Assembly: GCA_951406725.2 (NCBI GenBank)
Contig: OX597822.1
Coordinates: 93,310,001-93,374,000 of the forward strand
Length of the DNA stretch: 64,000 nucleotides
Reading direction: 5' to 3'
Source: Octopus vulgaris
Taxonomy: Eukaryota
Positions within the stretch are counted from its first letter, which is position 1. The number at the start of each line of letters is the position of its first letter. A model generated the notes under the pieces. It ran no database searches. It saw only the letters and a list, made by a program, of their open reading frames with translations, and was not told where the DNA came from. A program made the translations under genes and the position numbers. Below, in pieces: positions 53,200 through 53,401 of the stretch.

Positions 53200-53401
53200 G
53201 CAGCACGGATTTTTGTCAGTGAACAGGTCGCGGTCTTAAAGCGACGAAAATATTTTGACAAATTAAACTTAAATGTTGAAGTGAATCGAACGGCTTTTGT
53301 GTGTTTCTTAAATGGCTTACAAACACCTTCTACGCTGCGATTGTTTTCGTTTCAGCACACGATCTCAGATCAAATCACTTGCTATGCAAGTACATCTCCG
53401 T
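53200..53401 (+). mobile_element. Repeat family H2 monomer (202 bp) with 11-bp TSD
   Basis: AATTACCTATT at 53189-53199 and 53402-53412; homologous to 39495-39867. Confidence 0.85.
53212..53262 (+). ncRNA. Minimal hammerhead-like motif with G3-C8 swapped core
   Basis: UUUGUCA-GUGAACA-g-GUCGC(GGUCUUAAA)GCGAC-GAA-AAUAUU-U^UGACAAA: 7-bp helix I, 5-bp helix II, palindromic helix III. Confidence 0.75.

Follow-up and report, generated by a model that had tools for sequence, protein, structure and literature searches.

A candidate natural G3-C8 hammerhead in a pseudo-LTR from an autonomous Octopus vulgaris Penelope-like retroelement

Minimal type I hammerhead ribozymes have been described in the pseudo-LTRs of Penelope-like elements (PLEs), where they are marked by an extra nucleotide that separates position 9 from 10.1, a G10.1-C11.1 pair and a short palindromic helix III, and occur mostly as solo copies and in close inverted pairs (Cervera and De la Pena 2014, PMC4209133). 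The octopus motif reported here shares all these properties and differs in its core, which is G3-C8; the part of that study used here contains C3-G8 cores and, as a natural variant, U3-A8 only. Natural covariation of the 3-8 pair is also found among the core variants of Perreault et al. 2011 (PMC3088659), again as U3-A8 and not as G3-C8 in the sections of that report drawn upon. The G3-C8 pair itself is known from engineering: a C3G/G8C exchange partly restores cleavage of a PLE hammerhead (PMC11167929). According to PMC3884650, a G3-C8 variant performs better if N17 is kept from pairing with G3. The first of these results concerns Poseidon, a green anole PLE (Frangieh et al. 2024, PMC11167929), in which two internal reverse transcriptase (RT) starts define a tail and cleavage is dispensable for insertion. 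The octopus element resembles Poseidon in the position of the hammerhead near the start of the open reading frame (ORF), in two apparent internal RT starts, in AT-rich targets and in the probable insertion of uncut RNA. It belongs to a different PLE clade, with a zinc-finger linker present, and the exchange that served as an engineered control in Poseidon is here the native form of an entire family. Relative to the portions of these sources considered, PLE hammerheads, natural U3-A8 pairs and G3-C8 as an engineered rescue are already known and a natural G3-C8 variant would be new. No natural G3-C8 hammerhead was found in the literature covered, which did not include Lünse et al. 2017, Przybilski and Hammann 2007, part of the PMC4209133 supplement or the bioRxiv supplements.

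The window is the whole 64,000-nucleotide stretch of Octopus vulgaris DNA that was analysed (contig OX597822.1, positions 93,310,001 to 93,374,000), and the coordinates of its features relevant to this work are collected in Table 1. In the reading that we favor, with a probability of about two in three, the 202-base element is the pseudo-LTR plus tail of a PLE, it carries a G3-C8 hammerhead homologue likely to be capable of weak self-cleavage, and uncut RNA serves as the template for insertion.

Table 1. Features of the window bearing on the hammerhead motif and on the element that carries it.
Feature	Position	Strand	Remarks
Solo pseudo-LTR with tail, from a family 1 Penelope-like retroelement	53200..53401	+	
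Type I minimal hammerhead motif	53212..53262	+	helix I, G3-C8 core, extra G, helix II, GAA, palindromic helix III
Helix I, 7 bp	53212-53218 / 53256-53262	+	sequence read directly
Core strand GUGAACA	53219-53225	+	G3 = 53219 and C8 = 53224, replacing C3 and G8
Extra G	53226	+	sequence read directly
Helix II	53227-53231 / 53241-53245	+	sequence read directly
GAA	53246-53248	+	sequence read directly
Palindrome AAUAUU for dimer helix III	53249-53254	+	sequence read directly
U17, predicted cut after 53255	53255	+	placed by homology, following the hammerhead numbering of PMC4209133 in the part used
Opening 30 codons of the ORF for the PLE RT/endonuclease	53312..53401	+	putative start at the first in-frame ATG
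Tail between the two preferred 3' ends (element ~145 and 200-202)	53347..53401	+	end survey; compare the part of PMC11167929 used
11-bp direct repeat, left copy (probable target-site duplication)	53189..53199	+	
11-bp direct repeat, right copy	53402..53412	+	its initial 4 letters are also those with which the element itself continues
Older family 1 copy, element positions 5-202	39495..39692	-	motif damaged
Older family 1 copy, element positions 1-146	39722..39867	+	U4 changed
Sister-family fragment with ordinary C3-G8 core	56540..56631	+	core strand ~56564-56570

The 202-base piece represents the pseudo-LTR, together with the tail, of an autonomous Penelope-like retroelement. The ORF was reached by walking upstream from the copies, across a microsatellite-rich stretch, to a frame with RT and GIY-YIG domains in locus L064. 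The piece lies 0.9-1.3 kb downstream of the stop codon in 30/30 of the loci fetched with the RT/GIY-YIG protein, and locus L100 contains an open frame of 1025 codons. The single ORF linked to the piece encodes an RT followed by a C-terminal GIY-YIG endonuclease. The latter domain scores above the Pfam cut-off; the Pfam RT model gives a weak match to a fragment (E 0.07) and none to the full protein, the RT motifs being seen directly. In locus L144 the upstream copy of the piece continues straight into the ORF, whose first in-frame ATG there is element position 113, so that the piece is the pseudo-LTR of the autonomous PLE and includes 30 of its codons. An earlier note on this DNA had described the element as devoid of any ORF, a statement contradicted by its last 90 bases, which encode the beginning of the PLE protein. 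Pseudo-LTRs, partial tandems and an inverted 5'-truncated copy are all present in family 1, the family to which the element belongs.

The family 1 endonuclease displays a CX3CxxC linker and a CCHH motif, which excludes the Hydra clade (CCHH absent, CxCX5C linker). According to the portion of Craig et al. 2021 (PMC8557442) used, the same domain order, a CX2-5CxxC linker, the CCHH motif, partial tandems, an inverted 5' copy, a tail and (TA)n targets are properties of Neptune/Nematis-type C-terminal EN+ PLEs, and the linker spacing of family 1 is short, as in Nematis; the quick tree contained no named reference proteins. The family 1 tail, of about 55 bases, compares with 30-40 in that source, and the distance of ~125 residues between RT motifs 3 and 4 is roughly double that of the Nematis examples given there. 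The L100 ORF, which combines this spacing with a C-terminal endonuclease, has relatives in sea cucumber, coral and other marine records, and possibly represents a PLE subclade that has received little description and has an insertion in the fingers. At L066:5137-6669 there is another PLE frame, whose linker is long and of Neptune type.

The earlier note viewed the element as non-autonomous and retrozyme-like. In its full form this view takes the piece for an independent retrozyme or SINE spreading via ribozyme-cut circular RNA. Animal non-LTR retrozymes, like the present piece, are short hammerhead repeats derived from PLE pseudo-LTRs (bioRxiv 10.64898/2026.07.22.740005; PMC7229834, as far as the parts used extend), and the derivation proposed in that preprint, together with the many solo copies with sharp ends, would agree with such a view. 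So would the head-to-tail arrays of at least 5 units of element positions 2-145 present at a few loci of contig C28, namely L003 (G000:C28:24044094-24047294) and L160 (G000:C28:4994870-4997936). Retrozymes of this class are defined as non-coding tandem units, each with a ribozyme, independent of an ORF-bearing element and bounded by ribozyme cuts. The window copy is a single, isolated terminal piece of an autonomous RT/GIY-YIG element, lies outside any tandem array, includes the ORF start, is continuous with the ends of ORF-bearing elements and indistinguishable from them in sequence, and has ends that differ from the cut site. The retrozyme view is therefore largely refuted for the window copy and is regarded as very improbable. 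As an observation in its own right, the units of the L003 and L160 arrays are spaced by (TA)n with a period of ~190 bp and form a retrozyme-like tandem of the G3-C8 motif.

Two further copies announced near 39.6-39.8 kb were confirmed and are head-to-head inverted partners. The lesion of the motif is U4 to C in the plus copy; the minus copy carries G10.1 to C and a change in helix I. The 11-bp target-site duplication proposed for the 202-base element stands as a direct repeat, part of which is attributable to microhomology since the first four letters of the right repeat are also the next four of the element. Elsewhere in the window, a sister-PLE fragment at 8794-8874 has an ORF start 70% like that of family 2. 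By eye, we take the minus-strand segment at 15645-16451 to be a piece of a Pif1/Helitron-like helicase and that at 33430-33876 (minus) to be a piece of a mariner-like transposase; 34358-37083 presumably holds LINE-like fragments.

Direct reading confirmed every part of the motif layout that had been proposed. The letters that characterize type I PLE hammerheads, U4 G5 A6, A9, G12 A13 A14, A15.1-U16.1 and H17, are all present, as are the extra nucleotide, the palindromic helix III and covarying helices I and II. The consensus C at position 3 and G at position 8 are absent and replaced by G3 and C8, which preserves the Watson-Crick pair. RNAfold recovers helices I and II. It also favors a G3-U17 wobble that lengthens helix I (-14.5 vs -13.2 kcal/mol) and, on two copies, prefers strand-swapped helices to the helix III dimer; the stability of the palindrome duplex is only -0.2 kcal/mol.

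The possibility that such a resemblance is due to chance draws on a modest folding energy (z = -1.9, with 9/200 shuffles equally good) and on the lack of any hammerhead match in Rfam scans of both the window and the motif. The C3-G8 sister motif presented below likewise obtained no hammerhead match in an Rfam scan, which indicates that this test is insensitive. A PDB sequence search also returned no match. A relaxed hammerhead descriptor accepting any Watson-Crick 3-8 pair matches the window at the present motif and nowhere else, and in 100 simulated windows its mean number of matches was 0.12, or 0.02 for G-C pairs. The low chance rate, homologous C3-G8 motifs in three sister families and a covariation score exceeding all controls leave the chance explanation with a negligible probability, and it was rejected upon alignment of the sister families.

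These three sister families reside in the same genome and carry a C3-G8 core in the same layout. Family 2, whose protein is 55% identical to that of family 1 and which is its sister in a quick tree, bears its C3-G8 hammerhead upstream of the ORF. Families 3 and 4 were recovered by pattern search; family 4 (L231) has endonuclease remnants upstream, and its core differs from that of family 1 only at positions 3 and 8. The covariation alignment consists of 14 hand-picked motifs with related rows, including L211, so that its score is not a probability. In this set the 3-8 pair is C-G in 10 motifs, G-C in 4 and unpaired in 0, two-sided changes occur in 8/14 pairs, and the covariation score of the 14 related motifs exceeds 500/500 shuffles and all slid controls. 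The earlier proposal of a compensatory swap gains weight from the covarying pair and from natural C3-G8 counterparts in the sister families, and the comparison supports the assignment of the motif as a homologue of PLE-type minimal hammerheads with a compensatory G3-C8 pair.

A genome search with the G3..C8 pattern returned 9,033 matches vs 923 for the control, and a search with positions 3 and 8 free returned 8,897 vs 4 for the reversed control. By hand count, the first 100 listed of the 8,897 matches comprised 87 G-C, 6 C-G, 1 T-A and 6 unpaired. The genome thus contains about 8,000-9,000 G3-C8 sites; the 3-8 swap was probably a single event, and these counts are therefore not independent. 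L230, which had appeared to be a C3-G8 relative of family 1, was rejected as an inversion junction. Several other loci deserve mention. Family 2 (L167:2263-6201 and many other loci) is very young, with intact frames of ~1312 codons and a long Asn-rich insert. L211 (G000:C1:12071835-12071869, minus) is a single diverged G3-C8 relative, seen once, in which position 7 is C and helix II, perfect over 7 bp, has a different sequence. L215, L220 and L240 represent another C3-G8 hammerhead family. L097:1-230 / L117 is a lone diverged relative whose tail is common with family 1 and which has no intact core; no second copy of the divergent L097 sequence was found. A metagenome scan for relatives with flanks returned 1 weak, unrelated locus among 109 candidates.

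Conservation within family 1 was assessed on 188 copies by scoring lineage-level variants per column. Such variants were found in 1/42 ribozyme columns vs 21/154 non-ribozyme columns (p = 0.051 as first run), the latter including 5/9 columns of loop II. The sole variant ribozyme column reflects a gap within a run of T, and the 7-bp helix remains complete despite it; a value of p = 0.005 is obtained only once this gap is reassigned outside helix I. When the 79 young copies were set against the 33 old ones, net divergence was 0.004 for ribozyme columns, 0.366 for loop II and 0.043 downstream. The expectation that core and helices should be better conserved than the rest is borne out between subfamilies, where they are fixed and loop II changes. 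Core and helices are intact in 64/79 young, 35/68 middle and 3/23 old copies: single copies decay after insertion. C8 is altered in 17/174 copies, 9 of them to G, and these copies are scattered over subfamilies. In contigs of four sequencing runs, no variant of at least 5% was listed for the G3-A9 strand.

The ends of the copies were surveyed on 246 copies longer than 40 bp, 253 being distinct by flanks, in a sample biased to best matches and long copies. The 3' ends fall at positions 142-148 in 83/246 copies and at 199-202 in 131/246. Among full-span copies, only 3/107 run on into the ORF and 49/107 are followed by (TA)n. At the other end, 170 copies reach position 1-2, of which 82 extend into the upstream sequence of the element and 88 do not. 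The non-extending copies provide 63 distinct junctions, 24 of which retain exactly four upstream letters; an extra G precedes 18 of these 24 where the template has C or T (p ~1e-9 at 35% GC), although in our interpretation an inverted arm could be the source of the G in four of the 18. Reverse transcriptases can copy the RNA cap. The extra G is accordingly taken as a copied cap and its position as a probable capped start, which suggests that the solo copies are short cap-to-tail cDNAs. The idea that the extra G stems from a short spliced first exon was discarded, the letter before the G being variable. As to a spliceosomal intron retained in the pseudo-LTR, branch-point- and acceptor-like letters precede position 1; contigs of 4/24 sequencing runs contained no splice joint, the stretch before position 1 being skipped there as repeat, and no pile-up of ends, a signal beyond the reach of contigs. 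A literature search for a cap-derived G in PLE insertions found none. Copies beginning at positions 54-60, around the predicted cut, numbered 0/253 in this sample biased to long copies, which argues that the inserted cDNA derives from uncut RNA.

The mechanism may be summarized as follows. The RNA would be capped about 4 bases before element position 1, and the protein of the element would prime on nicked AT-rich DNA, using uncut RNA as template. Reverse transcription would begin inside the RNA at position ~145 or 202. A start in the 5' pseudo-LTR would reach the cap after 150-206 bases and leave solo pieces, and a start in the 3' pseudo-LTR would produce long, 5'-truncated copies. Weak cleavage is predicted after 53255, either as a dimer or with the help of the element's protein, and would serve transcript processing or restraint rather than production of the template, by removal of the cap or by splitting the ORF from the downstream priming site.

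The main rival explanation retains the PLE fragment and the hammerhead ancestry and holds that the G3-C8 version has no catalytic activity, or a negligible one, its fold being kept for other reasons (such as binding of a protein or promoter elements immediately after the start site) or owing to a short divergence time. The absence of copies starting at the cut site, the predicted G3-U17 mispairing and the weak palindrome are in line with such a loss, as are the insertion without cleavage of the anole PLE (part of PMC11167929 used), the low divergence of the downstream columns and the lone L097 relative without a core. Family 2 adds to this list: in its young copies, the most active of the sister copies, A9 is changed to C, and older copies retain A9, which implies that the cores of this clade tolerate drift. 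Against loss of catalysis, the two transversions fall exactly at the paired positions and the other core letters are constant across families ~45% apart in protein, as expected under selection on an active fold; moreover, positions 3 and 8 pair when the ribozyme adopts its catalytic conformation (PMC3088659, in the sections used). On balance a dead ribozyme is judged unlikely, if still to be reckoned with, and from sequence comparison the G3-C8 motif is likely a natural self-cutting variant. A stronger version of the favored reading, namely a young, high-copy PLE family with a working natural G3-C8 hammerhead whose solo copies are cap-to-tail cDNAs mapping the transcription start and two RT starts, is proposed tentatively, at somewhat under even odds.

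If the G3-C8 motif is indeed a working ribozyme, the natural hammerhead consensus would gain a third 3-8 pair. Searches based on the CUGAnGA descriptor would then overlook whole high-copy families, which bears on claims of PLE clades without hammerheads. The extra-G signature lends support from the genome to the view that RT initiates internally on capped RNA. Insertion in vitro needs no cleavage, and families 1 and 4, since their cores differ only at positions 3 and 8, offer a clean natural test of whether PLE ribozymes are selected for catalysis.
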